NCBI GenBank assembly: GCA_040756135.1
Contig: JBFLZS010000004.1
Location: 7,469 to 71,468 of the forward strand
Direction of reading: 5' to 3'
Source: Nitrospirota bacterium
GTDB lineage: Bacteria; Nitrospirota; Thermodesulfovibrionia; Thermodesulfovibrionales; SM23-35
Length of the DNA: 64,000 nt
A program made the position numbers and the translations under genes. The notes beneath the pieces were generated by a model. The model was not told where the DNA came from. It worked only from the letters and a program-made list of their open reading frames with translations, and searched no databases. Below, in pieces: positions 14,767 through 59,069 of this stretch; position 1 is the stretch's first letter; each line of letters begins with the position of its first letter.

Positions 14767-14935
14767 GGTTCTTTCGTAAAAAAGTTGAAAATCATGAATA
14801 CTGGATTCCCGCCTGCGCGGGAATGACAAACTGCTTACAATTAAAAACGTCATTCCCCGACCCCCGATTACAACCTTCGAGGGCAGGCTTGATCGGGGAA
14901 TCCAGAGTGCCTTTTCAACTAAAATACGAAAGACA
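14767..14935. mobile_element. 168-169 bp MITE-like element, copy 1 (family C)
   Basis: Near-identical to 31988..32155. Terminal inverted repeats are TCTTTCGTAaaaaAGTTGAAAA / TTTTCAACTaaaaTACGAAAGA, and the interior consists of family-B hairpins. Confidence 0.8.
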
Positions 14936-15087
14936 CAAAATTATTAACCACAAGTGCGAAAACACATATTGCCATGTATGTGGTAAACTGCTGATAGAAA
15001 GATATTATTTGATATTAATGAAAAATATTAAGGACAATAGATGCCTGAAATATAGCACCATTATTCTTGGAAGGTTTGAATAAGATA

Positions 15088-16185: not shown

Positions 16186-16300
16186 TCAGGCTATAATGGC
16201 AATGAGTCTGTTCTTGATGCGAATGTTGTCTATTTATCGAAGCTTGCATCCATGGCCTCAATCGCCCTTGAGATCATCAAATTAAAAGAAAAAATTTCAG

Positions 16301-16475
16301 AGTTGTAATAGTGAGCACATTGATTTATAAAATCCCTCCTAACCTCCCTTTGCCAAAGGGAGGAATAATCCCCTCTTGAGAGGGGTGTAGGGGTAGTGTA
16401 ATACCCTCTTTGGCAAAGAGGGGCGAGGGGAGATTTTCTGAATAATATGAATTCTATTATAAGACCGTTATTAAC
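16301..16475. mobile_element. MITE-like element family A, copy 1 (inverted relative to copies 2, 3 and 5)
   Basis: Contains GGAGGGATTTTATAAA, CCCTTTGCCAAAGGGAGG, CCCCTCTTGAGAGGGG, CCCTCTTTGGCAAAGAGGGG and the terminus TATTATAAGACCGTTATTAAC. Confidence 0.8.
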
Positions 16476-17185: not shown

Positions 17186-17377
17186 AATTGAATAGACATT
17201 ATTCAAAAAATCTCCCCTTTCCCCTCTTTGCCAAAGAGGGGTACACACCCCTTAATCCCCTCTTTATAGAGGGGAACTTTTCCTCCCGGAGCCTGCCCTG
17301 AGCGAAGTCGAAGGGGCAAAGGGAGGTGAGGGGGGATTTTATAAAACTAATGTAGTTATGAGAACGTTAATAATAGG
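17171..17377. mobile_element. MITE-like element family A, copy 2 (with extra internal insert)
   Basis: Termini TAATAGGAATCTCATAATTG .. GTTATGAGAACGTTAATAATAGG. The core is TCTCCCCTTTCCCCTCTTTGCCAAAGAGGGG plus a CCTGAGCGAAGTCGAAGG module. Confidence 0.8.
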
Positions 17378-19786: not shown

Positions 19787-19940
19787 CTTATTAACGGTCT
19801 CAAAATAGAATTCATATTATTCGGAAAATCTCCCCTCACCCCTCTTTGCCAAAGAGGGGTATGATTCCTCCCTTTGGCAAAGGGAGGTTAGGAGGGATTT
19901 TATAAATCAATGTGCTCACTATTATGAGACTGTTAATAAC
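19787..19940. mobile_element. MITE-like element family A, copy 3 (most complete)
   Basis: TIRs CTTATTAACGGTCTCAAAATAG .. CTATTATGAGACTGTTAATAAC. The core is CCCCTCTTTGCCAAAGAGGGG and CCTCCCTTTGGCAAAGGGAGG. Confidence 0.85.
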
Positions 19941-19987
19941 TCAATTAATTACACATTCAAATATCTGTTACAGTATATCCATACCTT

Positions 19988-21042: not shown

Positions 21043-23898
21043 ATGTCTATTAGAGTTTTTTATACCTCGTTTCTGTACAGAGAGTCCACAGATATCCTTC
21101 TCAAGGCAGCAATTGACAATATAAAGGACTCTGATTATTCAAAAATCCTTTATATCGCACCCACACCGAGAAAGGTCAGGGACTGTCAGAAGAGATTTCA
21201 TGGGCTAACCCTGTTAGATAACAAACACCTAACAGGGCTAACAGGAGGCTGCTACATCCACCCTGAGATGATGACGATAAAACAATTCTCAAAAAGACTT
21301 TATTCTCTGTATGGAGAAAAAAAAGTCATCCCCCGCTCTCTGATACCGATCATAATATCGAGGCTATCAGACAGGGGGATGGGTTTTGCATCTATTATCA
21401 CTAATTTTATCAATGAGATTAAACAGCGTCATCCTGACAAAGATATCAAAACTATTGGCAAGGAACTTAAGGCTATTTTTCACGAGCTCGGTATTCCTGA
21501 AGAGGTCTCCGTCAGGGCGATGGAGGCTCTCGAGATATTCGATGCATATCAAGAGCTCATGAATAAAAATTCTGCTGTGGATGAAAACGATATTATGGTA
21601 GCCTGTCCCGGCCTGATTGAGAGGCATAATTACCGCCCCACAATCCTTATACTCGATGGATTCTATGAACTTACCGGGTCGGAAGAGGCAATCCTGAAGA
21701 AGCTTATAACAAATGCAAAAGATACCTATATTTCAATCCCTTGCGATACTACTTTTTTAGATATAACAAGCAATTATATAAATTTTCTAAAGCATTACTT
21801 TAATATTGAAGAGGTCTATTTATATCCTGAAAAAGAGGCGATAGATCTTCGACATGCTCAGGTTTATCACCCATACCCTGGAATAGAGGAAGAGGTTGAA
21901 GGTATAGCAAGAAATATAAAGAACTGCTTTATATCCGGCAAGATAAGGGATTTAGAAAAAATAACAGTTACATTCCCTGCATTATATAAATATACAGATA
22001 TGGTAGGCCGTATCTTCACAAGATACGGCCTACCATACACCACCTCGATTTCAAAACCCGCTGGAAGGACACGACCCTTTCTCGACCTGATAGCGCTGCT
22101 TGAATCCGTAGCAGATGATTATCCGAGGCTCTCATTCTCAGAATGCCTTATATCACCCTATTTCAAAAATGTGCCTTCGGCACTTAAGGAATGGATACCT
22201 CATATTTGCCTCAGATCAGGCATAATCAAGGGAAAAGATGCATGGCTCAACCTCTCAAAGGCAATCAGCAATCAGCAATCAGCAATCAGCAATCTTATGC
22301 CCGATCTTGAAAAGGAACTTCGATGGGTCTTCAAGAAACTTGCTCCGCTGGAATCTATCAGGGATGGAGGGAGCTATAGCCAATACTGCGAGGTTATCAT
22401 TAAACTTTTGAATGACCTTGATTTCTCTGATGTCAGCAGTAAGGATATAGATCTAATGGAGCAGGTACTTGAGATACTAAAGGATCTTTCCTTTATTGAT
22501 AACCTCACCATTTTCAATCCTCATATTGCGACCCTCACATTGCGACAATTTACAGATGCCCTGAAGCATATCCTGAATGCTACAGAGACAGAAACAGAAG
22601 GTACAGGTGTTCAGGTCATGGGCTTCCCCGAGATAAGGGGTATCGAGCCTGAATATCTGTACATCGGGGGACTTAAGGACGAAGACCTGCCATCAAAGCC
22701 CGATATTGACCATATACTGCCTGATAGTGTAAGGACACAATTTGGGCTTGTAAACCTGAAAAGATATTTACTCCTCCAGAGATTTACATTCCAAAGGGCG
22801 ATAGAATCAACAAAAAATCTACACCTCTCCTATCCAGTTATGGAAGGGGATAGATTCTTTCTTCCCTCCCCTTTCCTTCCCTGGAACAGAGATGTAAAAC
22901 ATCAGGTTCACGGAATCTTCTCAAAGGAGGAAGATCTCATAAGAAAAGGCAGAACAGCCCTTGCATCATTTATAACAGAGATAGGAGGTATCGAAGAAAA
23001 GTTAAAAAATAAATTTGGAGAGGACTCTTATATCAGGGTCACAGATATAGATTCTTACAGGAGCTGTCCGAGAAGGTTCTTTATAGAAAAGGTCCTCCAG
23101 CTTGAACCATTAGAGATAAAAGAGTATGAGGTCGAGGCAAGGCTTCTCGGAACTATTGCCCATGAAATTATGCAGGCCCTGATATCAAAGCCATTTGCAG
23201 ATTTAGAAGATCTCAGGATTAGAGCAGAAGCGATAATAGACAAACTCCTCTCTGATAAACCTGTAGAAGACTACTGGAAAAAGGTGATTAAGGATACATT
23301 CCTTTCAATCCTGCCAGGAATATATGAACTCGAAAGCAAGCTTGCGGATGAAGGATATTCATTCATGCATGCAGAGGTTCCTGTTAGGGGCGAGGTTATA
23401 AAGGGAATAAAACTGAAGGGGAAGGTAGACAGGATAGATAAAAAAGTTCCGAGTTCCGAGTTCCGAGTTCCGAGTTCTAAGGATAATAAACTCGTCACTG
23501 ATGTTGTTGAGCTTATTGATTACAAGACAGGAACAACACAATTCAGTGGGTCACAGGTAATGACAAAGGGAGCTACACTTCAGTTGTTCCTGTATGCAGC
23601 ACTGTTAGAGGCTCTTGGAAACAAAGTAGAACGTGTAGGCATCTATTCACTCAAGGACATAAAGCTATCATGGATTCCCGGAAAGATTGATAAGAAAAAT
23701 AATCGGACAATCGATGACTATATTGGGTCAGGTCTCCGTTTCCTCAAGGAGACTGTATCAAAAGTGAGAAAGGGAGATTTTTCTGCATCCCCATTGAACG
23801 AGCAGACATGCAGGAACTGTCCTGAAAGACCATACTGTCCGTATGTACAAAAGACGGTTGCGGGGATGCTCCCCTCTCCCCTTGCGGGAGAGGGTTAG
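21043..23898 (+). CDS. addB: AddB-type helicase-nuclease subunit (PD-(D/E)XK nuclease with Fe-S cysteines)
   Basis: 951 aa with the C-terminal nuclease motif GKVDRID..ELIDYKTG plus CPRRF..CRNCPERPYCPY, directly upstream of addA. Confidence 0.8.
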   Translation: MSIRVFYTSFLYRESTDILLKAAIDNIKDSDYSKILYIAPTPRKVRDCQKRFHGLTLLDNKHLTGLTGGCYIHPEMMTIKQFSKRLYSLYGEKKVIPRSLIPIIISRLSDRGMGFASIITNFINEIKQRHPDKDIKTIGKELKAIFHELGIPEEVSVRAMEALEIFDAYQELMNKNSAVDENDIMVACPGLIERHNYRPTILILDGFYELTGSEEAILKKLITNAKDTYISIPCDTTFLDITSNYINFLKHYFNIEEVYLYPEKEAIDLRHAQVYHPYPGIEEEVEGIARNIKNCFISGKIRDLEKITVTFPALYKYTDMVGRIFTRYGLPYTTSISKPAGRTRPFLDLIALLESVADDYPRLSFSECLISPYFKNVPSALKEWIPHICLRSGIIKGKDAWLNLSKAISNQQSAISNLMPDLEKELRWVFKKLAPLESIRDGGSYSQYCEVIIKLLNDLDFSDVSSKDIDLMEQVLEILKDLSFIDNLTIFNPHIATLTLRQFTDALKHILNATETETEGTGVQVMGFPEIRGIEPEYLYIGGLKDEDLPSKPDIDHILPDSVRTQFGLVNLKRYLLLQRFTFQRAIESTKNLHLSYPVMEGDRFFLPSPFLPWNRDVKHQVHGIFSKEEDLIRKGRTALASFITEIGGIEEKLKNKFGEDSYIRVTDIDSYRSCPRRFFIEKVLQLEPLEIKEYEVEARLLGTIAHEIMQALISKPFADLEDLRIRAEAIIDKLLSDKPVEDYWKKVIKDTFLSILPGIYELESKLADEGYSFMHAEVPVRGEVIKGIKLKGKVDRIDKKVPSSEFRVPSSKDNKLVTDVVELIDYKTGTTQFSGSQVMTKGATLQLFLYAALLEALGNKVERVGIYSLKDIKLSWIPGKIDKKNNRTIDDYIGSGLRFLKETVSKVRKGDFSASPLNEQTCRNCPERPYCPYVQKTVAGMLPSPLAGEG
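22261..22294. repeat. 7-bp tandem array GCAATCA x~5 in frame inside addB
   Basis: gcaatca gcaatca gcaatca gcaatca gcaatc, translated as AISNQQSAISN. Confidence 0.9.
23446..23478. repeat. 7-bp tandem array GTTCCGA x~4.7 in frame inside the addB nuclease domain
   Basis: gttccga x4 plus gttct, translated as VPSSEFRVPSS, between the DRID and DYK nuclease motifs. Confidence 0.9.
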
Positions 23899-23909
23899 GG
23901 TGAGGGGGA

Positions 23910-26783
23910 ATGGAAAAGTATCTTGATATAACAAAAAGCGTTATCATCTCATCCCCTGCCGGTTCGGGAAAGACAGAGAAGCTCGCAAGGCGATATATAA
24001 GTTTGCTGCTTGGCGGCTCTGAAATAGAAAAAATACTTGCAATAACCTTTACTGAGAAGGCGGCAGCAGAGATGAAGGAAAGAATTCTCAGGATACTTGA
24101 AAAGGAAAACCCTGATATGTTCCTGAAGGTCAGGGAAAAGATGCCTCTCATGCGCATATCCACAATACATTCGTTCTGTCTTAAATTACTAAAACGGTTT
24201 TCAATAGAACTCGGCCTTGACCCTTCCCTTGAAGTAATAGATGAATTCAATGCATCCATCCTGTGGTCTGAGTCTGTGTATGAAAGCCTTATGGAAGAGA
24301 AAAATAGCCCTGACCTATTCTTCAATATGATGAAAAACAGGGGCGTCAAGGGCTGGGATAATCTATCCAGAATCCTCGATGAACTACACGGAAGGAGGCC
24401 GCATCCAGAGCTTATATTAAAAGAAAGTCGCCCTGTTGAGGGAGAAGAAGAAAAGAAAATCCTTGACCTGTATTCAAGATGTCTAAAACGTTATACTGAT
24501 AAAAAACGTGAAAGACATCTAATTGATTTTGACGATCTTGAGCTACTCGCGTATGAGGCCCTTGTCAAAAACCCTGAATGGCAGAACATCCTTTATTCAT
24601 TTGATGAACATACAGACCATATACTCGTGGATGAGTTCCAGGATACAAGCTCCCTGCAATGGAAGATTATAGACAAACTCACAGAAGAATGGCGCTCGGG
24701 CCTCGGTGCAAAAAGGGATTCTGGAAAGATACCAACCATCTTTCTCGTCGGAGATGAAAAACAGTCCATCTATCTCTTCAGGGGTGCAAATGTAAGCGTC
24801 TTTCGGGATGCAAAGGAGAAATTTTCCGAATGGCTCAGTAATGAATATTACTTTGAAGAGATACGGGAAAACTACAGGAGTCTGCCTGAAATAGTAAACT
24901 TTACAAACAGTCTTTTCAAAAGATTAATGCCTCCAACCCTGTATGAAAAATGGCGTACTATGTACACACCATTTGAGACAACAAGGGTAGGCAATGGCCA
25001 TGTCGAGCTTATCCTGATGGAAGGTAGTGAAGGCATAAAAAAGAGGCGTGAACAGGAAGCCTCGGCCTTATCAAAAAGGATACAATCATTAATTAATCAA
25101 TACGAGGTATGGGATGGGGAGACAAAGAGAACCTGCACCTATGGTGATATCGCGATACTTTTAAGAAAGAGAACACACCTCGGCATATTTGAAGATGCAT
25201 TAAGAAGAGAGGGAGTACCCTTCATTGTATTAAAAGGTATTGGTTTTTACGATGAGCCAGAGGTTGCAGTACTGAGAGAACTGCTTTCTTTTATCATTGA
25301 TCCGATGGATGATTATAGCCTGTTCTGTCTCCTCAGGTCTCCTCTTTTTGGTATTGACTACAGGATATTATTCAGACTGATTGATAAAAAAGGTGACCTC
25401 ACTTTATTAGAGAAACTTCAATCTCAAATCCCCCCTTCCCCCCCTTTACTAAAGGGGGGAAGGGGGGGATTAATGGCCCGTCATTTATCTGAGGCATTTA
25501 ATCTTATCTCCGGCTGGATCAGGAGATCTGCACATACACCCCTTGCTATTCTCCTTGAGGATGCGCTTTCAGAGACAAAGGGGTGGCAGTATTACTGGGA
25601 AAAACAGAGATATGTAAACATAAAAAAATTCATAGGACTTATTGAACAATATGAGTCACAAGGTTTCTCCAGCCTTGACATAAGGGAAAAACTCATCAAG
25701 GCAAGATGGGGTGAGGAGGCGAAGGCAAACATTAATACAGAGGGTATGAATGCTGTAAAGATAATGACAATTCATGCTGCTAAAGGCCTCCAGTTTCCAG
25801 TAGTATTCCTTCCGTCACTTGATGAAGATAATCTTCCAAGAAGCAGCTCAATAGTGATAGAGGAAGATGGAGAAAGGCTCTCTTTATCATACGAAGAAGA
25901 CCCTAATAAGAGGAAAAAGATTGGACATTTCATCAGGCGAAGGGAAAAAGAACTCGAAGAGGAAAAAAGACTCTTTTATGTTGCAATCACAAGGGCAAGG
26001 GATTTCCTCTGTATGCTCGGTGCACCAAAGAAAGAAGAAAAACATAAAGGAAGGCTCGCATATGTTACTGATAACCTCGAACACCTCTCTTCTCTCAAGA
26101 TAATAACCGAATCGGATATTAATGTCTTTAAAAATCCCCCCATCCCCCCTTTACCAAAGGGGGGTAAGGGGGGATTTATTTCTTACGAATTTTCAGAACA
26201 ATTCTTGTTTGAACCAGCATACACAGAACCCATCTCATATGAACCTTCACTCAAATGGCAGGATGTCACAGAGGATTTAGACATAAGGGTAAAACACGGT
26301 GAAGACTGGGTCTTACTTGGAAAGGTTTTTCATAGTCTCTTTGAAGAGCTCGCAAAGGGGATCATAAGGTTTGACGAAATAGAGAGAAGAACATTGATAC
26401 TTTTAAGAAATGAGATACATATAAAAAAAGATATAGAAAGATTGATGGAGATTATAAGAAAAGATTTTGAAAAGCTTGATTCATCGGGGTATCTAAAAGA
26501 TGTAGTTCTCCCGCAGATAAACTCCTATGCAGAGCTTCCTTTTATCATGCAGAAAGGAAACACAGTCTTCAGGGGCAGGATAGACAGGATTGTTATAAAA
26601 GATAATATCGCCAATATTTATGATTATAAGACCTTTCCTGTAAAAGAAAGAGAATTATCAGAACTTATTGATGAATACAGGTTCCAGATGGACATTTACA
26701 CGGCTGCTGCAGAAAAATTACTTTCCCTCAAGACAAAAGGGTACATCTTGTTTACACATTTGCCTTTACTGGTAGAGGTTTAG
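23910..26783 (+). CDS. addA: AddA-type UvrD-family helicase with C-terminal PD-(D/E)XK nuclease
   Basis: 957 aa with Walker A SPAGSGKTEKL, DEFQDTS, helicase motifs (IMTIHAAKGLQFP, YVAITRAR) and C-terminal GRIDRIV..IYDYKT. Confidence 0.85.
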   Translation: MEKYLDITKSVIISSPAGSGKTEKLARRYISLLLGGSEIEKILAITFTEKAAAEMKERILRILEKENPDMFLKVREKMPLMRISTIHSFCLKLLKRFSIELGLDPSLEVIDEFNASILWSESVYESLMEEKNSPDLFFNMMKNRGVKGWDNLSRILDELHGRRPHPELILKESRPVEGEEEKKILDLYSRCLKRYTDKKRERHLIDFDDLELLAYEALVKNPEWQNILYSFDEHTDHILVDEFQDTSSLQWKIIDKLTEEWRSGLGAKRDSGKIPTIFLVGDEKQSIYLFRGANVSVFRDAKEKFSEWLSNEYYFEEIRENYRSLPEIVNFTNSLFKRLMPPTLYEKWRTMYTPFETTRVGNGHVELILMEGSEGIKKRREQEASALSKRIQSLINQYEVWDGETKRTCTYGDIAILLRKRTHLGIFEDALRREGVPFIVLKGIGFYDEPEVAVLRELLSFIIDPMDDYSLFCLLRSPLFGIDYRILFRLIDKKGDLTLLEKLQSQIPPSPPLLKGGRGGLMARHLSEAFNLISGWIRRSAHTPLAILLEDALSETKGWQYYWEKQRYVNIKKFIGLIEQYESQGFSSLDIREKLIKARWGEEAKANINTEGMNAVKIMTIHAAKGLQFPVVFLPSLDEDNLPRSSSIVIEEDGERLSLSYEEDPNKRKKIGHFIRRREKELEEEKRLFYVAITRARDFLCMLGAPKKEEKHKGRLAYVTDNLEHLSSLKIITESDINVFKNPPIPPLPKGGKGGFISYEFSEQFLFEPAYTEPISYEPSLKWQDVTEDLDIRVKHGEDWVLLGKVFHSLFEELAKGIIRFDEIERRTLILLRNEIHIKKDIERLMEIIRKDFEKLDSSGYLKDVVLPQINSYAELPFIMQKGNTVFRGRIDRIVIKDNIANIYDYKTFPVKERELSELIDEYRFQMDIYTAAAEKLLSLKTKGYILFTHLPLLVEV
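25427..25471. repeat. GC-rich palindromic element (family P) in frame in addA
   Basis: AATCCCCCCTTCCCCCCCTTTACTAAAGGGGGGAAGGGGGGGATT, translated as IPPSPPLLKGGRGGL. Confidence 0.9.
26133..26176. repeat. GC-rich palindromic element (family P) in frame in addA
   Basis: AATCCCCCCATCCCCCCTTTACCAAAGGGGGGTAAGGGGGGATT, translated as NPPIPPLPKGGKGGF. Confidence 0.9.
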
Positions 26784-26893
26784 AGACAAAGAGGGGCATT
26801 ACACACCCCTACACCCCTCTCAAGAGGGGATTATTCCTCCCTTTGGAAAAGGGAGGTTAGGAGGGATTTTATAAGAATTACGTACACATTATT
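26784..26893. mobile_element. MITE-like element family A, copy 4 (left end truncated at addA stop)
   Basis: ..CAAAGAGGGGCATTACACACCCCTACACCCCTCTCAAGAGGGGATTATTCCTCCCTTTGGAAAAGGGAGGTTAGGAGGGATTTTATAAG... The right end runs into the ATG of the next gene. Confidence 0.75.
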
Positions 26894-28282: not shown

Positions 28283-28594
28283 ATGAAAAGAACAAATATT
28301 ATGCTTACCGATGAACAACATAAGAAACTGAAATCCTATGCAAAGAAAGAAGGGAGAACCCTCGGAGAGCTTGTTAGGGAAGCTTTGGATAACACTTATA
28401 AAAAGAGAAATATTTTAGAACACAGGAAAAATATTGCTCTTGATGCCTATCAGGAAGGCCTTATCAGTCTTGGAAAGCTGTCTGAGATTTTAGGCTTAGA
28501 CATAGTTAGTGGGAGACTATATCTAAAAGAAAAGAATATTCCACTTAAAGTTCAGGATCTCCAAGAAATTGCCAAGGATGCAGTGAATGCCTGA
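28283..28594 (+). CDS. antitoxin, RHH N-terminus plus UPF0175-like C-terminus
   Basis: MKRTNIMLTDEQHKKLKSYAKKEGRTLGELVREAL (RHH) and ..GLISLGKLSEILGL... It overlaps the downstream PIN gene by 8 nt. Confidence 0.7.
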   Translation: MKRTNIMLTDEQHKKLKSYAKKEGRTLGELVREALDNTYKKRNILEHRKNIALDAYQEGLISLGKLSEILGLDIVSGRLYLKEKNIPLKVQDLQEIAKDAVNA

Positions 28595-29084
28595 TGTCAT
28601 TTTTGACAACTGTGTTCTCAGCAATTTTGCCTTATCAGAAGCCGTCCATATCATCAGGAGACTTTATGAAAACACTTCATTTGTAACTAATTTTGTCGTT
28701 GCAGAAAATATGAAAGGTATTATTAAAGGATACAATGAGCTTAATAAAATAAGGGAGGCAATAAGAGAAGACTGGCTTAAGGAGGTAACTCTGGAGGGTC
28801 AGGAGGAGAAGAAACTCTTTGAATCGCTATCGGTGTCTTTAGGGCTGGGTGAGGCATCAAGCCTTGCTGTTGCAAAGACAAGGGGTTTCATTTTTGCCTG
28901 TGACGATATGGTTGCAAGAAGAGAGGCACAATTGCTGAATATAAAACTCACTGGAACTTTAGGGATACTCATAAAAGCTGTAAAAAAGAGGCTTATTTAT
29001 CAAAAAGAGGCAGATAGGATATTAGCCCGGATGGTTGAAAACGGCTTTTATTCACCTATAAGGTCGTTAAAGGAAATACTATAA
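28587..29084 (+). CDS. PIN-like (DUF3368-type) toxin
   Basis: 165 aa with GLGEASSLAVAKTRGFIFACDDMVARREAQLLNIKLTGTLGILIKA, typical of the DUF3368 PIN family. Confidence 0.7.
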   Translation: MPDVIFDNCVLSNFALSEAVHIIRRLYENTSFVTNFVVAENMKGIIKGYNELNKIREAIREDWLKEVTLEGQEEKKLFESLSVSLGLGEASSLAVAKTRGFIFACDDMVARREAQLLNIKLTGTLGILIKAVKKRLIYQKEADRILARMVENGFYSPIRSLKEIL

Positions 29085-29171
29085 CCTTTCTTAGTTTATC
29101 CCCATCTCTGCTATAATTAGTGCATGAAACGTTCATGTCTTAAAAAGACGCAAAGGATAATGAAAATTAGT

Positions 29172-29217
29172 AATCCCCCTTATACCCCCCTTTAGAAAAG
29201 GGGGGCAAGGGGGGATT
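29172..29217. repeat. family P palindrome fused to a conserved leader (twin of 35640..35684)
   Basis: AATCCCCCTTATACCCCCCTTTAGAAAAGGGGGGCAAGGGGGGATT, followed by TGAGGTATTTTCAG and a start codon. Confidence 0.9.
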
Positions 29218-29231
29218 TGAGGTATTTTCAG

Positions 29232-29717
29232 GTGAAACATATTGACAGAATATGCGAAAAATACAATATAGCCCTATGTTATCTCTTTGGCTCTCAACAG
29301 GACCAAGGGAAGGCCATTCTGGAAGGTAAGCAGGTTGAAGTGGTAGACACAGAATCAGATATTGATTTTGCGGTTCTGTTTAAAACGCCTCCTGAAAATT
29401 CCCTTGAAACCTATGCCTTGTTGAGCCTTGACCTTCAAGAACTCGTAACACCTTTTAAAGCTGACCTCCTTTTTCTACATGAGGTTGACCATTTGATACA
29501 GCTTGAGGCAATTAAAGGGATAAACATATATTCCTTTGACAATGTATTTAGAGATGAATATGAAGAAAAGGTGATGATGTTCGCATCGGATGAATTAGAG
29601 ATATTTAAAATGAATGAGAAAGATCTGTTAGAGGCGATAGACAATGGTTATTTCGAATTTGAATACAAAGCTGATAGATATAGACAGCGGTCTACGATTC
29701 GTAGAGGAGAGGGTTAG
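29232..29717 (+). CDS. MNT-type nucleotidyltransferase-domain protein (no adjacent HEPN partner)
   Basis: LCYLFGSQ...ESDIDFAVLF (the GS..DxD NTase motif). GTG 29232 was chosen by analogy with glgA, and the C-terminal GEG* is supplied by a repeat. Confidence 0.65.
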   Translation: MKHIDRICEKYNIALCYLFGSQQDQGKAILEGKQVEVVDTESDIDFAVLFKTPPENSLETYALLSLDLQELVTPFKADLLFLHEVDHLIQLEAIKGINIYSFDNVFRDEYEEKVMMFASDELEIFKMNEKDLLEAIDNGYFEFEYKADRYRQRSTIRRGEG

Positions 29718-29743
29718 GGTGAGGGGGGATTGGTAAGAGGAAA

Positions 29744-31987: not shown

Positions 31988-32155
31988 GGTTCTTTCGTAA
32001 AATAGTTGAAAATCATAAATACTGGATTCCCGCCTGCGCGGGAATGACAAACTGCTTACAATTAAAAACGTCATTCCCCGACCCCCGATTACAACCTTCG
32101 AGGGCGGGCTTGATCGGGGAATCCAGAAGCCTTTTCAACTAAAATACGAAAGACA
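31988..32155. mobile_element. 168-bp MITE-like element, copy 2 (family C)
   Basis: Near-identical to 14767..14935 with only a handful of substitutions, in the same orientation. Confidence 0.8.
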
Positions 32156-32231
32156 ATAAGATAATAACATAATATATAAAGTCAATAAAGCGAAAGAGCA
32201 TTGTAGACTGCCTGTGTTATTATAGCTAACG

Positions 32232-33545
32232 ATGAAGCGGGTTGTTGTAACAGGCATCGGTGCAGTTAGTTCCCTTGGAAATTCATTTTATGAGTCCTGG
32301 AGGGCTGCAAAAACAGGATTATCAGGCATACTGCCAATAACAAGATTTGATGTCTCTGATATGAGATGGAAGGTCGCAGGTGAGTTAAAGGGATTTGATG
32401 CAGGGAAATATCTTTCTCAAAAAGAGATGATCCGAGTTGACCCGTTTGTGCATTATGCTGTTGCTGCAGCAATGATGGCAGTAGAGGATGCAGGACTGAT
32501 AGATCAGAAGTCAGAAGTCAGAAGTCAGAAGTCAAATCCCCCTCCACCCCCCTTTACTAAAGGGGGGGTAGGGGGGATTACTAACTCCGAACTCTTAAAC
32601 TCTGCTGGGGTTATTATCGGTTCAAGCCGTGGAGGGATCACAACAATAGAAAAAGAGCTGCAAAAATTATACGCATCACGTATCACGCATCATGCATCAC
32701 GCATTTCTGCCTATCTCATGCCATCAACAACGATCAGCATGGCTTCGTCTTATGTTGCCCAAAAACTTGGTATAAAGGGCCACTGTCTCGGTATATCCAA
32801 TTCATGTGCATCAGGCACAAGTGCGATAGGTGAAGCATATAGGCTGATCAGGTCAGGCTATCAAGGTATCGTGCTATGTGGTGGAGCCGAAGCCCCTTTA
32901 TGCAGGATATGTATTGAAGGATATGGTTCATCAGGTGCTTTATCCAAGGTCAACGATCCCTCTGCGAGCAGGCCGTTTGACAGGACGAGGGATGGATTTG
33001 TCCTTTCAGAAGGCGCGTGTATTTTTGTCCTGGAAGATTATGAGAGTGCATTGCGAAGAGGTATAAGGACGTACGGAGAGATTGTAGGCTATGGGAATAC
33101 AACAGATGCATTTCATCAAACCATACCGGCCTCTGAAGGTGAGGCAAGGGCAATAAAGATGGCAATAGATGAGGCAGGATTGAAGCCTGAAGATATTGAT
33201 TTTATCAATGCACATGGTACATCGACACCCCTTGGTGATAAAACCGAGACAGAGGCGATAAAGCTGTCATTTGGCAAGAGAGCCTATTATATCCCTGTAA
33301 GTTCTACTAAATCCATGACTGGTCATATGCTTGCTGCATCCGGAGCCCTTGAGGCAGCTTTTACCTTAATGAGTATGAATGAAGGGGTTATTCCACCAAC
33401 AATCAATCTGAAAGAGAAAGACCCTGAATGTGATCTTAATTATGTAACCGAAACAAAAAGGGCTGATATTAAATCTGCTATTTCTAATTCATTCGGCTTT
33501 GGTGGGGTGAATGCGGTGCTGGTTTTTAAAAGGATTGGCCTCTGA
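32232..33545 (+). CDS. fabF: 3-oxoacyl-ACP synthase II (FabF) carrying two repeat-derived insertions
   Basis: KAS fold with active-site context NSCASGTSAIG, HGTSTPLGD and GHMLAASG. The extra segments are at 32505..32579 and 32671..32705. Confidence 0.9.
   Translation: MKRVVVTGIGAVSSLGNSFYESWRAAKTGLSGILPITRFDVSDMRWKVAGELKGFDAGKYLSQKEMIRVDPFVHYAVAAAMMAVEDAGLIDQKSEVRSQKSNPPPPPFTKGGVGGITNSELLNSAGVIIGSSRGGITTIEKELQKLYASRITHHASRISAYLMPSTTISMASSYVAQKLGIKGHCLGISNSCASGTSAIGEAYRLIRSGYQGIVLCGGAEAPLCRICIEGYGSSGALSKVNDPSASRPFDRTRDGFVLSEGACIFVLEDYESALRRGIRTYGEIVGYGNTTDAFHQTIPASEGEARAIKMAIDEAGLKPEDIDFINAHGTSTPLGDKTETEAIKLSFGKRAYYIPVSSTKSMTGHMLAASGALEAAFTLMSMNEGVIPPTINLKEKDPECDLNYVTETKRADIKSAISNSFGFGGVNAVLVFKRIGL
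32505..32579. repeat. composite insert: 7-bp array (CAGAAGT x4) plus family P palindrome, in frame in fabF
   Basis: cagaagt x4 then AATCCCCCTCCACCCCCCTTTACTAAAGGGGGGGTAGGGGGGATT, translated as KSEVRSQKSNPPPPPFTKGGVGGI. By my count the span is 75 bp. Confidence 0.9.
32671..32705. repeat. 7-bp tandem array (ACGCATC-like x5) in frame in fabF
   Basis: acgcatc acgtatc acgcatc atgcatc acgcatt, translated as ASRITHHASRIS. Confidence 0.85.
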
Positions 33546-34633: not shown

Positions 34634-35629
34634 ATGTCAGAACTTAGAAAGGACCCTATATCCGGCCGCTGGGTTATTATCTCTGTAGAAAGAGGTAAAA
34701 GGCCAACAGATTTTGTCTCTCCTTCTCAGAGAAAAAAAGGTGGTTTCTGTCCCTTCTGCCCCGGTAACGAATATACTACACCAGCAGAAATAATGGCTTT
34801 TAGACCTTCTGATACAAAGCCGAATTCACCGGGATGGACGTTAAGGGTCATGTCTAATAAGTTTCCTGCCCTCCAGATATATGGAGACCTGAATAAGACA
34901 GGAGAGGGCATTTTTGACAAGATGAACGGGATAGGTGCTCATGAGGTTATTGTGGAGACACCAGATCACATGCTAACCCTCTCGACTATGCCGTTAAAGT
35001 CAGTTGAAGATGCACTTTGGGCATATTACCTACGACTCTCTGACCTAAAGAAAGATCAGCGTTTTAAGTATGTGCTGATATTTAAGAATGAAGGAGATGC
35101 TGCGGGTGCATCCCTTGAACATTCCCATACACAGTTGATCGCACTGCCGATTATCCCTAAACTGGTGAAAGAAGAGACCGATGCCGCAAAACGTTATTAT
35201 GATTTAAAGGAAAGATGTATTTTCTGTGATGTTATTAATCAGGAACTCGAAAGCAGGAAAAGGGTAATATACGAAAACGCAAGGTATGTTGCACTCGCAC
35301 CATTTGCGCCGAGTGCGCCTTTTGAGACGTGGATATTGCCTAAGAGGCATGAGTCGAGGTTCAGCCCTCCGGATAAGAGTTTCTCGGGTCTTGCAGAAAT
35401 ACTCCAGGTTATCCTGAAACAGATGGACAGGATACTCGATGTGCCTCCTTATAATTTCGTGTTACACACGTCTGCTTTTACCGATGAAATAAATGATTAC
35501 TACCACTGGCATATAGAGCTTGTGCCCAAGCTCACAAAGATTGCTGGCTTTGAGTGGGGTTCGGGTTTCTATATTAATCCTACACCTCCTGAGGAGTCAG
35601 CAAGGTTTATGAGGGAGGCAAAGATATAA
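34634..35629 (+). CDS. galactose-1-phosphate uridylyltransferase-family (HIT branch) nucleotidyltransferase
   Basis: CPFCPGNE zinc motif and the active site SLEHSHTQLIA (HxHxQ). It is adjacent to glgA. Confidence 0.85.
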   Translation: MSELRKDPISGRWVIISVERGKRPTDFVSPSQRKKGGFCPFCPGNEYTTPAEIMAFRPSDTKPNSPGWTLRVMSNKFPALQIYGDLNKTGEGIFDKMNGIGAHEVIVETPDHMLTLSTMPLKSVEDALWAYYLRLSDLKKDQRFKYVLIFKNEGDAAGASLEHSHTQLIALPIIPKLVKEETDAAKRYYDLKERCIFCDVINQELESRKRVIYENARYVALAPFAPSAPFETWILPKRHESRFSPPDKSFSGLAEILQVILKQMDRILDVPPYNFVLHTSAFTDEINDYYHWHIELVPKLTKIAGFEWGSGFYINPTPPEESARFMREAKI

Positions 35630-35639
35630 TGAAATTTGT

Positions 35640-35684
35640 AATCCCCCTATACCCCCCTTTAGAAAAGGGGGGCGAGGGGGGATT
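35640..35684. repeat. family P palindrome fused to a conserved leader (twin of 29172..29217)
   Basis: AATCCCCCTATACCCCCCTTTAGAAAAGGGGGGCGAGGGGGGATT, followed by TGAGGTATTTTCAG-ATG of glgA. Confidence 0.9.
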
Positions 35685-35698
35685 TGAGGTATTTTCAG

Positions 35699-39614: not shown

Positions 39615-39669
39615 GAAGTGAGAAGTGAAATCTTAACTTCCTATTTCCTATTTTCCACTTCCTACTTTT
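39597..39669. repeat. inverted 7-bp-periodic arrays forming an imperfect hairpin between kinase and regulator genes (possible attenuator or terminator)
   Basis: gagaagt gaaaaat aagaagt gagaagt gaaa / acttcct atttcct attttcc acttcct actttt. The left arm encodes the last residues and the stop of the kinase. Confidence 0.5.
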
Positions 39670-40035: not shown

Positions 40036-42036
40036 ATGTCGCGTGAAATCTATCTTGAAAGCACACCTTTACACGAGGCGATAGCGAAGTGGCTTAAAAA
40101 GCTTGATTCTGAAGGGGTTATGAGGCCACTCTCAGGGGAAACAATCAAGGTTGTAAATTCCCTTGGAAGAGTTACCGCTGAGGCAATCATCGCAAATATC
40201 TCTTCTCCGTTTTACCATTCGTCAGCGATGGATGGCTATGCCGTGAGATTCGCAGATACTTTTGGTGCCTCAGAGAGGACTCCTAAAAGGTTAAAGATAG
40301 GAGAACATACAGTTTATGTTGATACAGGTGATCCTATGCCTGACGGGTTTAACGCAGTAATAATGATAGAGGATGTAAATATAATAAAAAGTCAGAAGTC
40401 AGAAGTCAGAAGTCAGACAAATCCCCCCTTTCCCCCCTTTACTAAAGGGGGGTTAGGAGAAATTGATGAATACATCGAGATAATTTCGCCTGCAACACCC
40501 TGGCAGCATGTGAGGGTAATTGGTGAAGACATTGTGGCTACAGAGCTGATACTACCTGAGAATCATAAGATAAGACCTGTTGACATAGGTGCAATGCTAA
40601 CAGGCGGGCATATAGAGGTGATTGTCAGGAAAAGACCGCGTGTTGTTGTTATCCCGACAGGTACGGAACTTGTTGAGGCAGGAGGGGATTTAAAGAAAGG
40701 TGATATTATCGAATATAACTCAAGAATCTTCAGCGGTCTTGTCTCTGAATGGGGAGGTGAGTCTATCAGATTCAGGATTATACCCGATGTGATCGAAGAA
40801 CTGAAAAGGGCGATACTGGATGCCCTCGACATGGGGGACCTGGTTGTTGTTAATGCTGGTGCATCTGCTGGCTCGGAAGACTTCACTGCAAAGGCTATAA
40901 ATGAGCTCGGAGAAGTGATACTCCATGGCGTTAGCATAAAGCCGGGTAAGCCCGTCATCCTTGGATGGATAAAAGGTAAACCCATTCTTGGCATACCCGG
41001 CTATCCTGTATCTGCTTATATAACATTCAATCTATTTGCAAGGCCACTTATTTATAAATGGCAGGGTCTCGATATAGAAGGGCCTGAGATATTGAGGGCG
41101 AAGATTTCGAGGCAGGTCGCATCTACCTTAGGACATGAGGAATTCCTTAGAGTAAAGGTGGGGAAGGTCGGTGATAATTTTATCGCAACCCCTGTTAGCC
41201 GTGGAGCAGGTATACTTATGTCTCTTGTACGTGCTGATGGTTTTGTCCGAATACCTGCTATGTCCGAAGGTATTGGTGCAGGCACAGAGGTAGATGTGGA
41301 GCTAATGAGGTCTAAAGGCGATATTGAAAATACGATTGTCTGTATCGGAAGCCATGACAATGCCCTCGATCTGCTTGCTAATATACTAAAGAAGAGGCAT
41401 CCTAAGTTTTCTCTCTCATCAGCCCATGTGGGTTCAATGGGAGGTCTGATGTCATTAAAGAGAGGAGAGGCATATATGGCAGGAACACATCTGTTAGATG
41501 AGAAGACAGGGGAGTACAATGTATCATTTATAAAAAGACTTCTTCCTGATAAAAAGATCCTCCTCATAAATCTTGTCTATAGAGAGCAGGGTCTTGTTGT
41601 GCTAAAAGGTAATCCCAAAAACATAAATGGATTTGAAGACTTAACAAGAAGTGATGTCGTGTTTGTCAACAGACAGGCCGGTGCAGGAACAAGGCTTCTT
41701 ACAGATAAGTGTTTAAGAGAACTTGGGATAAAACCTGAAAATGTAAAAGGTTATGAAAGGGAGGAATATACACACATGGGCGTTGCATCTGCGGTGCTTA
41801 CAGGGGTTGCAGACACTGGCCTTGCAATACTTGCATCTGCGAGGGCATTAAATCTCGATTTTATCCCTGTTGCAAAGGAAAGATATGACCTTGCAATACC
41901 TCGTGAATTCTTTGAGACGGAGATGCTTCAGAATCTCATAAAGATTATAAGCGAGGACACAGAATTCAAGGATATGGTGATGGCGCTTGGGGGATACGAT
42001 ATATCAGATATGGGAAAGGTGATGTATGAAGGTTAA
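40036..42036 (+). CDS. moeA: MoeA molybdopterin molybdenumtransferase fused to a periplasmic-binding-protein-like domain
   Basis: 666 aa with MoeA domains (SAMDGYAV, GGVSxG-like GASAGSEDF, PGKP, PGYPVS) plus a C-terminal PBP-like module. Confidence 0.85.
   Translation: MSREIYLESTPLHEAIAKWLKKLDSEGVMRPLSGETIKVVNSLGRVTAEAIIANISSPFYHSSAMDGYAVRFADTFGASERTPKRLKIGEHTVYVDTGDPMPDGFNAVIMIEDVNIIKSQKSEVRSQTNPPFPPFTKGGLGEIDEYIEIISPATPWQHVRVIGEDIVATELILPENHKIRPVDIGAMLTGGHIEVIVRKRPRVVVIPTGTELVEAGGDLKKGDIIEYNSRIFSGLVSEWGGESIRFRIIPDVIEELKRAILDALDMGDLVVVNAGASAGSEDFTAKAINELGEVILHGVSIKPGKPVILGWIKGKPILGIPGYPVSAYITFNLFARPLIYKWQGLDIEGPEILRAKISRQVASTLGHEEFLRVKVGKVGDNFIATPVSRGAGILMSLVRADGFVRIPAMSEGIGAGTEVDVELMRSKGDIENTIVCIGSHDNALDLLANILKKRHPKFSLSSAHVGSMGGLMSLKRGEAYMAGTHLLDEKTGEYNVSFIKRLLPDKKILLINLVYREQGLVVLKGNPKNINGFEDLTRSDVVFVNRQAGAGTRLLTDKCLRELGIKPENVKGYEREEYTHMGVASAVLTGVADTGLAILASARALNLDFIPVAKERYDLAIPREFFETEMLQNLIKIISEDTEFKDMVMALGGYDISDMGKVMYEG
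40391..40464. repeat. composite insert: 7-bp array (GTCAGAA x4) plus family P palindrome, in frame in moeA
   Basis: gtcagaa x3 gtcagac then AATCCCCCCTTTCCCCCCTTTACTAAAGGGGGGTTAGGAGAAATT, translated as SQKSEVRSQTNPPFPPFTKGGLGEI. Confidence 0.9.
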
Positions 42037-43287
42037 TTATCCCTTTTTTTGTGGTTCTCCTTTTTCTTCAACCTCGCCTTCAATAAGTCTTTTTGCACCA
42101 ATAAATCTTTTGAAATAATATGGGGTTTCGAGACTGTCAATAGTAACCTTCTTGCCCCTTGATGATGCATGTATAAAAAGGTTATTGCCGAGATAAATCC
42201 CTACATGTGAGGGGAAGGATGCATATGTCCTGAAGAAGACGAGGTCACCTATAGAAAGCTCTTCCTTATCAACAGGATTTCCTTCAGAGAATTGCTCTCT
42301 TGCCGACCGTGGAAGATTTATCCCGATCAGGCTATAGACCTTTTGAACATATGCTGAGCAGTCAATCCCGAGAAGGCTGCTTTCGCCAAACCTGTAAGGA
42401 ATACCTAACAATTTTTTTGCGAAAAGGATAAGCCTTTCCTTCATACTGAGTTCTTTTAGGCCGGGGTCTTCAGATTCAGAGGCCTTCTTTATCTCATCTT
42501 CGATATGTGGCTGTGAAAGTATTGCCTCGTGATTTTTTATTTCAGCCACTTCAACCACGGGTTCTAAAAGGATTTTCTGACCCGGTTTTAATAAGTTTGT
42601 CTCGAGATTATTGATATCCATCAGCTCATCAGGATCGATATTAAACTTCTTTGCAATCTTCCAGATATTGTCGCCTTTTTCCACAGTATAATTCCTTGGC
42701 TCGGTTCGTTTAACAAGGAGCTTTCGTCCTATTCTTAGTTTTTTTGATCTAAGATTGTTGATCTCCTTGAGTTCATCTATTGATATTGAGTACTTTTTCG
42801 ATAAGAAAAATAAGGTATCGCCTCTTTTTACTACGTGGTATAAAGAATCCTCTTGACGTTTCACCGTTTCAATATTATCACCTGAAAATCCCCTATTTCC
42901 CTTTTTAAAATCCCCCTCTAATCCCCCTTTATTAAATCCCCCCTCACCCCCCTTTGCTAAAGGGGGGGTGGGGGGATTATCCATTTTCCAAAGTGTATGG
43001 GAGGATTCAGTGTGATTAACTTTATCTTTCTTTTGGGCAAGTTTATTCTTCTTTGGAGCTCCTTTTTTATTCGATGGAATGGTTATTTTTATGCCTGGTT
43101 TAAGATTAGCAGGCCTTAAATTATTAACTTTAATGATATCTTGTGTTCTAACCTTAAATTTTTTAGCTATTTTATATGGGTTGTCGCCTTTTTTTATTGT
43201 ATAAGTTGTATCAGCGTAAATATTGCCTGTGATAAAAGTTGCAAGCGTAAGGATAACAATAAAAAGATAAAGCCTTATCATACTCAC
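42037..43287 (-). CDS. LysM-repeat NlpC/P60 peptidoglycan hydrolase
   Basis: Signal peptide, three LysM repeats (YTIKKGDNPYKIAKKF, VVKRGDTLFFLSKKY, YTVEKGDNIWKIAKKF) and NlpC/P60 motifs (GIDCSAYV..H). Confidence 0.85.
   Translation of the reverse strand: MSMIRLYLFIVILTLATFITGNIYADTTYTIKKGDNPYKIAKKFKVRTQDIIKVNNLRPANLKPGIKITIPSNKKGAPKKNKLAQKKDKVNHTESSHTLWKMDNPPTPPLAKGGEGGFNKGGLEGDFKKGNRGFSGDNIETVKRQEDSLYHVVKRGDTLFFLSKKYSISIDELKEINNLRSKKLRIGRKLLVKRTEPRNYTVEKGDNIWKIAKKFNIDPDELMDINNLETNLLKPGQKILLEPVVEVAEIKNHEAILSQPHIEDEIKKASESEDPGLKELSMKERLILFAKKLLGIPYRFGESSLLGIDCSAYVQKVYSLIGINLPRSAREQFSEGNPVDKEELSIGDLVFFRTYASFPSHVGIYLGNNLFIHASSRGKKVTIDSLETPYYFKRFIGAKRLIEGEVEEKGEPQKKG
42886..42978. repeat. family P palindrome preceded by three extra AATCCCC half-sites, in frame in the LysM hydrolase gene
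   Basis: aaaATCCCCtatttccc..AATCCCCCtct AATCCCCCttt..AATCCCCCCTCACCCCCCTTTGCTAAAGGGGGGGTGGGGGGATT. On the coding strand this gives DNPPTPPLAKGGEGGFNKGGLEGDFKKGNRGFSG. Confidence 0.85.
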
Positions 43288-43830: not shown

Positions 43831-44002
43831 AAGACGTTAAAATATACCAGAAATTAGCCTAAAAATTCAATCTTTTTCTTCAAAAAAATTTTCTTTGATG
43901 ATTTCTTTAGTTTGCTGCTTAATGCATCATCTATTGTATTTTTTTGCCCTTTTTAGTAGCGATATGATGGCTACGTAGTTTCTGTGTATAAAGTCGGGTT
44001 TT

Positions 44003-44110
44003 GTCATTGTCCGGCTTGACCGGACAATCCATGGTTCTACAAGCTCACCATGACAATTGTCACCCTGAGCCTGCCGAAGGGTGGATTCCCCGATCAAGTC
44101 GGGGAATGAC
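44003..44110. repeat. GTCATTGYCC hairpin doublet (family B) with a central GTCACCCTGAGCCTGCCGAAGGGTG module
   Basis: GTCATTGTCCGGcttgaCCGGACAATCCATGG ... GGATTCCCCGAtcaagTCGGGGAATGAC. Confidence 0.7.
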
Positions 44111-44261
44111 GGAATATTCAATTTGCAATTTATACATAGACTCTACGGAGTTTTAACAAGACTTAAAAAACTGTCAGAAGATAGAGGAATTAGCAGTATA
44201 AATAGGCTAATGACAACGGAACCACTCCCGATGTATAATTTTGCTAAAAGGGGTTTTTCAT

Positions 44262-47364: not shown

Positions 47365-49829
<2,465 letters not shown>

Positions 49830-58922: not shown

Positions 58923-59000
58923 TTTTGTGTAATTCTCCTTCTATATCTTTTATCTTCTTTGAAAACTTACTAAGACGGCCATAAGTAAGGATACATGATC

Positions 59001-59069
59001 GTCATTGCCCGACTTGATCGGGCAATCCAGAGAAAGGAACTGGATTCTCCGGTTGAGCCGGAGAATGAC
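59001..59069. repeat. GTCATTGCCC hairpin doublet (family B)
   Basis: GTCATTGCCCGActtgaTCGGGCAATCCAG ... CTGGATTCTCCGGttgaGCCGGAGAATGAC. Confidence 0.75.

Follow-up and report, generated by a model that had tools for sequence, protein, structure and literature searches.

How does the same GC-rich palindrome come to stand, repeatedly and in frame, inside unrelated conserved genes of a free-living bacterium? The question is raised by a 64,000-nucleotide stretch of a Nitrospirota metagenome-assembled genome (MAG; contig JBFLZS010000004.1 of assembly GCA_040756135.1), referred to here at its full length as the window, which carries seven copies of a palindromic unit of 44-46 bp, the 45-mer. Our analysis indicates that the 45-mers are very probably a selfish repeat, similar to repetitive extragenic palindromic (REP) elements, that is tolerated in frame. 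It also suggests that a nuclease of the DUF559 family may be the agent of their mobility.

A preliminary description of the window, made from its letters alone, had located seven copies of the unit, and pattern matching found all of them at the same coordinates. The consensus is AATCCCCCC-N3-5-CCCCCCTTTnnnAAAGGGGGG-N3-GGGGGGATT. Its core, CCCCCCTTTnnnAAAGGGGGG, starts without mismatch at positions 25439, 26144, 29185, 32547, 35652, 40432 and 42947, and 20 matches were counted in the window when up to three mismatches were allowed, against 0.01 expected from 100 shuffles. The copies and the inserts to which they belong are the following.

25427..25471, no strand assigned: copy 1 in AddA, in frame, amino acids 506-520, peptide IPPSPPLLKGGRGGL
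26133..26176, no strand assigned: copy 2 in AddA, in frame, amino acids 742-756, peptide NPPIPPLPKGGKGGF, in the linker preceding the nuclease domain
29160..29233, plus strand: intergenic copy, core 29172-29217, flanks AATGAAAATTAGT ... TGAGGTATTTTCAG-GTG, upstream of a nucleotidyltransferase gene
32504..32594, plus strand: composite insert in FabF, consisting of (CAGAAGT)x4, the palindrome at 32535-32579 and a heptamer remnant, ACTAACTCCGAACTC; amino acids 90-118
35628..35698, plus strand: 71-nt insertion at the galT-glgA junction, core 35640-35684, providing the TAA stop for galT and GAGG-N9-ATG for glgA
40389..40464, plus strand: composite insert in MoeA, (AAGTCAG)x4 followed by the palindrome at 40420-40464 with a decayed right arm, encoding KSQKSEVRSQTNPPFPPFTKGGLGEI
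42899..42978, no strand assigned: insert in the LysM/NlpC-P60 gene (host gene on the minus strand), made up of the palindrome at 42935-42978 and two partial repeats of the arms, in frame in a linker, NPPTPPLAKGGEGGF

Five of the seven exact copies thus lie in frame in four genes, and Pfam searches bore out the names that these genes had been given. The hosts are an AddA-like protein with a UvrD helicase and a PD-(D/E)XK nuclease (23910-26783, two copies), FabF (32232-33545), a MoeA with a fused PBP-like domain (40036-42036) and, on the minus strand, a protein with three LysM domains and an NlpC/P60 domain (42037-43287). The AddA sequence is identical to that of a protein from an NCBI MAG, in keeping with a source related to Thermodesulfovibrionales, and an exact look-up with FabF matched no record. 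The perfect C6/G6 form is therefore intragenic in five of seven cases, in a window that is ~85% coding, while the variant doublets described below are intergenic. When folded as single-stranded DNA, six copies formed a two-stem C/G hairpin with an internal loop of 3x3 to 5x3 and a free energy of -16.9 to -20.7 kcal/mol (z = -2.8 to -5.3, no shuffle being as stable). The MoeA copy, whose right arm has decayed (GGAGAAATT), reached only -11.1 kcal/mol. [quoted passage not shown] Furthermore, the two intergenic copies (29172 and 35640) are units of ~71 nt whose common flanks extend beyond the 45-mer; they share 95% identity over 61 nt, and this identity takes in a GAGG ribosome-binding-like flank.

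The translations of the coding copies are identical to the five Pro-run/Gly-run peptides quoted earlier. Runs of CCC and GGG encode Pro and Gly in every frame, and the TTTnnnAAA centre gives a stop in only one frame of three. All five coding copies use the two open frames, as expected from the argument, already made in the preliminary description, that such a palindrome is tolerated because it encodes Pro and Gly in most frames. Peptides of the third frame, such as SPLTPLFQRGE, were found elsewhere, where the loop is without a stop. We conclude that coding copies are tolerated because they add 15 codons that are stop-free in two of three frames on either strand and that form a flexible Pro/Gly loop.

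If the coding copies are insertions, their peptides are expected to be missing from distant orthologues, and the preliminary description had named a homologous peptide at the same positions there as a refutation. A metagenome scan based on GalT provided 80 related loci with 80-98% protein identity; AddA anchors were not found in these GalT-centred loci, and the AddA sites were compared at the DNA level through four separately obtained genes. All four host proteins have orthologues that lack the peptide, and the refutation did not materialise. At AddA site 1 it was present in ~10 of 120 homologues, and at site 2 in only two, the source protein and one other with 86% identity (P0124). Across 120 FabF homologues, the stretch flanked by DAGL and GVIIGSSRGG varies in length from 8 to 64 amino acids; 36 of these homologues hold a peptide belonging to this family, and in 8 the site is essentially empty. 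Between conserved blocks, solved FabF structures, among them that of Bacillus subtilis (4LS6), have 3 residues where the window FabF has 29 (amino acids 90-118). In an AlphaFold2 model computed from a shallow alignment, residues 94-115 are predicted to form a coil between a helix and a strand, with a predicted local distance difference test (pLDDT) score below 50. The MoeA site is empty in three related loci (L133, L139 and L189), contains only heptamers in three others (L126, L131 and L138), other palindromes in L125 and L134, and this palindrome in some; the heptamer units differ in sequence between relatives. Finally, none of 11 relatives carries the insert at the LysM site.

Comparison of close relatives showed how these sites change. 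At AddA site 1, L123 retains the left half of the palindrome only, through a 24-nt deletion, and L121 has heptamer-like sequence, while at site 2 L121, L122 and L123 (87-91% protein identity) all hold a different palindrome, CGCCATGAGCTTGTCGAAGGGTCACATG, at the same position. The galT stop codon and the glgA start codon overlap (GATATGAAGATAC) in most of the 80 relatives, which represents the empty site. Likewise, the spacer between addA and the asparaginase gene measures 7 nt in L122, an empty site, against 110 nt in the window, where it is filled by a mosaic. In blastn comparisons with L125, the closest locus (86-96% nucleotide identity), the alignment stops exactly at the palindrome edges, leaving gaps from 35632 to 35699 (galT-glgA) and from 40417 to 40467 (MoeA). 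At the galT-glgA junction the duplicated target could be AT, an imperfect ATGAA or none, and the other sites are replacements. Exact cores number seven in the 64-kb window against six in 794 kb of relatives, i.e. they are ~14 times denser in the window, which suggests a recent, lineage-specific expansion. Taken together, these comparisons show real and evolutionarily recent arrivals, at hot spots of turnover where replacement and nesting take the place of single clean insertions. The simple in-frame insertion first proposed holds in that the in-frame copies are absent from most orthologues, but several sites have undergone palindrome swaps beside heptamer arrays.

Other palindromes with C-runs and G-runs occupy the same loops in relatives, at L125:8706-8784 and in L134 (moeA) and in P0005, P0018 and others (FabF). 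Their peptides, SPPLNPPLSKGGSYRGG, TPSLTLPPRGGGQGWGG and PPTHPSPSRGEGKGG, suggest several competing families.

The FabF and MoeA copies are embedded in tandem arrays of 7-nt units. At fabF and moeA, the same arrays, (AGTCAGA)n and (CTCCGAA)n, enclose different palindromes in the window and L125, and heptamer arrays also adjoin copies in other phyla (Gallionella L079, Nitrospirae L035). The window contains near-perfect or perfect arrays of 4-5 units at 14044-14077, 22261-22294, 23445-23477, 32504-32534, 32671-32704, 39598-39667, 40389-40417 and 49248-49327. Most of them are coding, in a TPM-domain gene, addB (twice), fabF (twice), moeA and a kdsB-like gene, and yield peptides with a period of 7 amino acids. 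Relatives have arrays of different unit sequence at the same protein sites.

The window also holds 7-8 further hairpin modules, which belong to two compensated variants, CCTCCC/GGGAGG and CCCCTC/GAGGGG. Two stem positions are altered on both sides (C-G to T-A), without a single one-sided change, and define the variant subfamilies. Altogether there are 14 hairpin modules in 64 kb, with a half-unit of ~33 nt, a short, multicopy, imperfect palindrome as REPs are with their 20-40 nt. The variants carry matching variant arms and are arranged as intergenic inverted doublets and mosaics, one of them resembling the inverted REP doublets that form hairpins (REPINs).

16330..16437, no strand assigned: intergenic mosaic doublet with a Y-type left half, an extra small hairpin and an X-type right half
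17209..17340, no strand assigned: mosaic doublet in which another palindrome (CCCTGAGCGAAGTCGAAGGG) interrupts the loop of the right hairpin, a nested insertion
19826..19901, no strand assigned: doublet of the REPIN kind, AAAATCTCCCC-TCA-CCCCTCTTTGCCAAAGAGGGG-7 nt-CCTCCCTTTGGCAAAGGGAGG-TTA-GGAGGGATTTT
26803..26871, no strand assigned: mosaic element in the addA-asparaginase spacer, the site being empty in L122
63758..63833, no strand assigned: second copy of the X/Y doublet

The doublet at 19826-19901 folds with -22 kcal/mol (z = -4.7) and shares 87% identity with the copy at 63721-63855. The mosaics at 16325-16394 and 26805-26874 are 99% complementary over 70 nt; together with the 95% identity over 61 nt of the two intergenic 45-mer copies, this indicates recent copying. 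A mosaic repeat of ~190 nt (16280-16474 and 19788-19950, inverted copies, 85-93% identity) brackets a 3.4-kb block with nitroreductase, acyl-CoA dehydrogenase, PTPS and ICMT-like genes, and such inverted brackets could permit inversion of the block. We considered this segment (16.3-19.9 kb) as a transposon and rejected it, the genes inside being ordinary metabolic genes.

We then asked how far the element extends. A scan of genomes, one per species, returned at least 143 matches at at least 119 loci, against a chance expectation that we estimate at ~9 matches in a uniform collection of 596 Gb. The figures that follow refer to the matches listed. The phyla represented include Nitrospirota, Desulfobacterota, Beta- and Gammaproteobacteria, Acidobacteriota, Chloroflexota, Ignavibacteriota, Methylomirabilota, Elusimicrobiota and Deinococcota. 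Isolate and complete genomes are among the matches, and organisms of this kind known to carry the element are Sulfurimicrobium lacus, Chromatium okenii, Lysobacter, Luteimonas and Pelotalea. The basic half-unit is a tagged hairpin, AAATCCCCCC-N3-CCCCCCTTT-N3-AAAGGGGGG. Only the left arm (AAATCCCCCC-N2-3) was present in 53 of 143 matches, only the right arm in 57, both in 11 and neither in 22; the ends AAATCCCCCC / GGGGGGATTT are accordingly found in the window and in 121 of the 143. Half-units are laid out as arms-out doublets, arms-in doublets and tandem mosaics (e.g. L316), and 41 of the 143 matches (~29%) have a stop-free frame of at least 60 amino acids on both sides, some of them in very long open reading frames (ORFs). 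Viral contigs gave at least 145 matches, with a single arm in 117 of those listed, i.e. arm statistics like those of genomes. The element is thus not confined to this lineage, since many phyla and viral contigs carry the half-unit.

Known RNA families and the literature offered no match for the repeat. Rfam detected only two tRNAs in the whole window at gathering scores and, at E <= 10, only chance hairpin matches around the AddA copies, such as microRNA precursors. Searches of the literature with the DNA strings of the element retrieved only papers on the HIV polypurine tract, and six translated peptides retrieved nothing.

One gene was found precisely bracketed by the half-units, and this in many bacteria. 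In L039 (3340-3770), a DUF559 gene lies exactly between hairpin-CGA-GGGGGGATTT and AAATCCCCCC-TC-hairpin, and in the viral contig L316 (5705-6248) a DUF559 gene adjoins three tandem half-units. In L326 (S. lacus AP022853.1), L327 and L328, doublets stand on both flanks, in the order doublet, R-arm, one base, ATG...DUF559...AAT CCC CCC TAG-hairpin, doublet. The start codon of the bracketed gene is 1 nt past the G-run arm and its stop codon is within the spacer. The product, of ~119 amino acids, belongs to PF04480 (4e-39) and matches PDB 3HRL. Gene-less versions of the same junction with a spacer of 10-30 nt occur in L030, L018, L040, L099 and L006, and the 33-nt ends of the DUF559 units are those of the repeat.

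The association is also apparent from the proteins. C-terminal tails encoded by the element were observed in 76 of 120 close DUF559 homologues: 50 read through the hairpin (...KSPPAPLLQRGE, ...NPPCPPFSKGG), and in a further 26 the last residues are ...NPP or ...KSP and the stop comes from the spacer. A strict tail motif was found in 45 of the 120, as compared to none of 240 FabF and AddA controls. The DUF559 family counts 27,671 representatives at E <= 0.001 in a library at 50% identity, and among the best 150 diverse representatives 58 have element-derived tails or leaders. Furthermore, more distant members of the family, carried by plasmids of Picosynechococcus and Deinococcus, have other inverted repeats with C-runs and G-runs on both sides. 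The literature agrees with this picture. Previous work placed DUF559-containing genes in the EDxHD family of homing endonucleases (PMC9403480), a family described in PMC3384342 and PMC3239194. DUF559 genes were also 14-fold enriched among genes hit by predicted inverted-repeat inversions (PMC9881135), and in Legionella DUF559 segments are hot spots of intragenomic recombination (PMC12308824). None of the papers examined links DUF559 to a repeat family, and the papers of the searched library that name DUF559 do so outside their titles and abstracts.

These observations suggest a model in which mobility would follow a nuclease-plus-repair route with DUF559 as its agent. The autonomous unit would consist of inverted half-units around the ~119-aa DUF559 gene, with the G-run arm serving as a ribosome-binding site, and the 45-mer of the window would be the minimal fused form, one hairpin tagged at either end. 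A DUF559 nuclease whose gene lies elsewhere in the genome may nick or cut at hairpins, after which repair would copy the element from another locus into the break, leading to spread and to exchange of units. Such cutting and copying would account for the spread of the units, for the replacement of one by another at a given site, for nesting within hairpin loops and for the burst in one lineage. In this lineage the family would have expanded recently, its copies settling in surface loops, linkers and gene junctions that tolerate extra sequence. The same hot spots would gather 7-nt microsatellites and other palindrome families, cassettes would be swapped over species-level divergence, and copies would decay neutrally after insertion. 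We consider the chances about even that the whole chain holds and that the 45-mers are minimal non-autonomous, gene-less members of a hairpin/DUF559 selfish system. More tentatively, and with the balance tilted slightly to the doubtful side, the hairpins may be the ends and gene-less derivatives of an unrecognised pan-bacterial selfish class whose autonomous form is a DUF559 gene bracketed by tagged hairpins.

Several points weigh against this proposal. Neither DUF559 nor a transposase was detected in the 64-kb window or in the 794 kb of relatives, so that the presence of the cognate enzyme in this genome is presumed. Across ~240 pattern-selected loci, jackhmmer identified DUF559 in L039 and L316 only, and no recurrent gene family was found beside copies. 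Adjacency gives no direction either, and DUF559 could simply home into palindromes; its action on these hairpins is assumed by analogy with REPs and the REP-associated tyrosine transposases (RAYTs). At the sites compared, no clean target-site duplication or cut site of fixed length could be defined. The overall confidence of the FabF model is low (mean pLDDT 70), and translation of the inserts into protein is presumed. Other searches were equally negative within their scope: Pfam identified no DUF559, transposase or integrase among ~45 of the 58 window ORFs of at least 90 amino acids, ORF clustering at the 119 genome loci returned generic families only (kinases, response regulators, ABC ATPases and methyl-accepting chemotaxis proteins) and no transposase, a DUF559 alignment run against viral contigs recovered nothing beyond the query locus, and the window copies themselves encode no nuclease.

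Could a conventional transposase account for the repeat instead? The 45-mer might be a classical REP or MITE mobilised by a RAYT, i.e. an IS200/IS605-type tyrosine transposase, or by a DDE enzyme encoded elsewhere, with DUF559 as an unrelated neighbour. The arrangement in singlets, inverted doublets and mosaics is that of REPs, bacterial interspersed mosaic elements (BIMEs) and REPINs, the whole element is one terminal inverted repeat, and intragenic REPs, many of them in replication and repair genes, are on record (PMC3733652). However, the ends are AAT/ATT and not the GTAG or CGTC tags of the RAYT-associated superfamilies (PMC3733652), the window and the surroundings of the copies contain no Y1 or DDE transposase gene, and no RAYT gene flanked by units was found there; what the units bracket, repeatedly and with precision, is DUF559. 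We regard this explanation as unlikely. About equally improbable, in our view, is that the palindromes spread via ectopic gene conversion or replication slippage, aided by heptamer microhomology, and that DUF559 is a homing parasite landing on head-to-head dimers. The assignment of DUF559-containing genes to a homing-endonuclease family (PMC9403480; family in PMC3384342) fits this idea, as do the exact position of the gene between GGGGGGATTT and AAATCCCCCC, the existence of gene-less junctions, the identical heptamer arrays around different palindromes at fabF and moeA in the window and L125, and the alignment breaks exactly at palindrome edges. Yet DUF559 takes both its start and its stop signals from the arms, which suggests long co-evolution as one unit, and distant DUF559 clades with their own matching inverted repeats are a better fit to cognate pairs than to opportunistic homing. 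Moreover, conversion alone cannot explain arrival at repeat-free sites such as the galT-glgA overlap.

A role for the host was also considered, in which intergenic copies would act as bidirectional terminators or RNA stability hairpins and coding copies as flexible linkers or regulatory pause sites. An A-tract/GC-hairpin/T-tract layout does resemble a bidirectional terminator, compensatory changes keep the palindromy, and the two intergenic copies bring stop, GAGG and start, so that expression signals are preserved at galT-glgA. We nevertheless judge host selection very unlikely: coding copies are missing from most orthologues and differ between species at ~88% nucleotide identity, copies decay (the right arm in MoeA, the half deletion in L123, L171), the same sites hold unrelated palindromes or nothing, and no Rfam family matches. 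Artefacts of sequencing or of assembly, for instance poly-G/poly-C chimeras, were considered as well; read-level evidence of assembly artefacts had been named in the preliminary description as a refutation. Long runs of G or C invite errors, and the copies come from a MAG, but the same inserts recur with point differences in independent assemblies from JGI, ENA and NCBI, the element is present in isolate and complete genomes, and all coding copies keep the frame; the probability of an artefact is therefore negligible.

The comparison with Rickettsia palindromic elements (RPEs), drawn when the copies were noticed, proved apt for behaviour and not for kinship. According to Ogata et al. 2000, as given in PMC10969869, RPE-1 to RPE-10 are ~100-150 bp long, code for a peptide that is specific to the family and are restricted to Rickettsia. 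Like them, the 45-mer is a hairpin repeat lying in frame in unrelated housekeeping ORFs that remain open, its peptide is missing in orthologues, and the peptide site is probably on the protein surface. The 45-mer differs in its length (45 bp as compared to the ~100-150 bp given in that description), in its C6/G6 runs, in its presence in many phyla and viral contigs, in its singlets and doublets and in its link to DUF559. By length, host (a Nitrospirota MAG) and family, it is set apart from the RPEs as they have been described; the in-frame, selfish-looking behaviour is that of an analogue, with no evident homology.

The system formed by REPs, BIMEs, REPINs and RAYTs is similar in that its short tagged hairpins come singly, as inverted doublets or in mosaics (PMC3116915, PMC3733652), a single-copy enzyme gene lies between inverted units, and some REPs are intragenic, often in repair genes (PMC3733652). 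In contrast, the tag here is AAATCCCCCC instead of GTAG or CGTC, the bracketed gene encodes a Vsr-like DUF559 nuclease instead of a Y1 transposase, the C6/G6 form is mostly intragenic (five of seven copies) and not predominantly extragenic, and phyla far apart have nearly identical sequences, while a REP is usually restricted to one species. EDxHD homing endonucleases, I-Bth0305I being an example (PMC3239194, PMC3384342), form the nuclease family to which DUF559-containing genes are assigned (PMC9403480) and include free-standing selfish genes, and their break-and-copy route would account for cassette exchange. However, the known members reside in group I introns or inteins or are free in phage, and have an extra region for DNA binding and a long, unique target; the protein paired here with a multicopy hairpin repeat is minimal, at ~119 amino acids.

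The heptamer arrays and the in-frame palindromes have parallels of their own. The heptamer tandem repeats of cyanobacteria, known as short tandemly repeated repetitive (STRR) sequences, and small dispersed repeats are mainly intergenic. They and the TAACTGA repeats of Beggiatoaceae (PMC4679880) share with the window abundant 7-nt arrays and tiny nesting palindromes that are occasionally genic. The peptides of 7-aa period found here (QKSEVRS, TNDQ-type) look like the cyanobacterial ones. These systems differ from ours in being described as mainly intergenic and in belonging to other phyla, and no C6/G6 palindrome paired with heptamer arrays in conserved Nitrospirota enzymes was found in the literature searched. 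In yeast, mitochondrial GC clusters lie in frame in var1. Such clusters and the coding palindromes of Nematomorpha mitochondria (PMC6649704) are likewise GC-rich palindromes tolerated in frame in protein genes, but they are organellar, belong to other sequence families and lack an associated nuclease gene of the DUF559 type.

Other repeats and features were observed in the window. A direct repeat of 180 nt, which precedes a radical-SAM gene (14767-14948) and also lies upstream of fabF (31988-32168), shows 98% identity over 140 nt and is composed of a different, widespread palindrome type (GGATTCCCGCCTGCGCGGGAATGAC and GTCATTCCCCGA...TCGGGGAATCC). Further palindrome families occur at 43990-44120 and 59000-59029, namely CACCCTGAGCCTGCCGAAGGGTG, of the SLSKG/PELVEG type, and GGATTCCCCGATCAAGTCGGGGAATGAC; the CACCCTGAGCCTGCCGAAGGGTG type also fills AddA site 2 in L121-L123 and is nested in the mosaic at 17209-17340. 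The 3' end of addB has a G-rich 32-nt repeat (GGAGAGGGTTAGGGTGAGGGGG..., 23887-23918) that recurs with 88% identity at the 3' end of the nucleotidyltransferase gene (29706-29737), and a 21-nt tandem repeat (52534-52594, ~2.9 copies, 95% matches) lies in a small minus-strand ORF, 52404-52685. Directly upstream of the palindrome copy at 29172 is a UPF0175/DUF3368 gene pair (28283-29084), which we take to be possibly a toxin-antitoxin pair. Finally, positions 25933-26029, over AddA coding sequence upstream of the RLFYVAITRAR block, gave a sub-threshold Rfam match to RF03531 (51.7 bits, gathering score 65.2), according to Rfam a Clostridioides difficile small RNA included in a helicase gene. This match most likely reflects conservation of coding sequence, not an RNA.

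The principle of in-frame or intragenic repeats is not new, intragenic REPs having already been recorded (PMC3733652). What is new is the family itself, its frequency in essential genes of a free-living lineage, its coupling to heptamers, its pan-phylum conservation and its association with DUF559. In-frame selfish palindromes have been treated as nearly peculiar to Rickettsia (PMC10969869); among free-living Nitrospirota such behaviour is frequent, five events falling within 18 kb, and the family is common to many phyla and to viral contigs. As a consequence, MAG annotations, protein alignments and trees will contain Pro/Gly cassettes of 15 amino acids and adjacent peptides of 7-aa period, and many hypothetical peptides of the ...PPFxKGG... 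type are translated repeats. Surface loops of essential enzymes can serve as landing pads, a cheap source of loop variation over species-level time. The bracketing of DUF559 genes gives a testable function to a very large family and suggests a second partnership of enzyme and hairpin beside REP/RAYT. If the hairpins do represent a new selfish class, the large DUF559 family would gain a function as a nuclease-based counterpart of REP/RAYT, and a widespread source of Pro/Gly loop insertions and of cassette turnover in conserved bacterial proteins would be explained.

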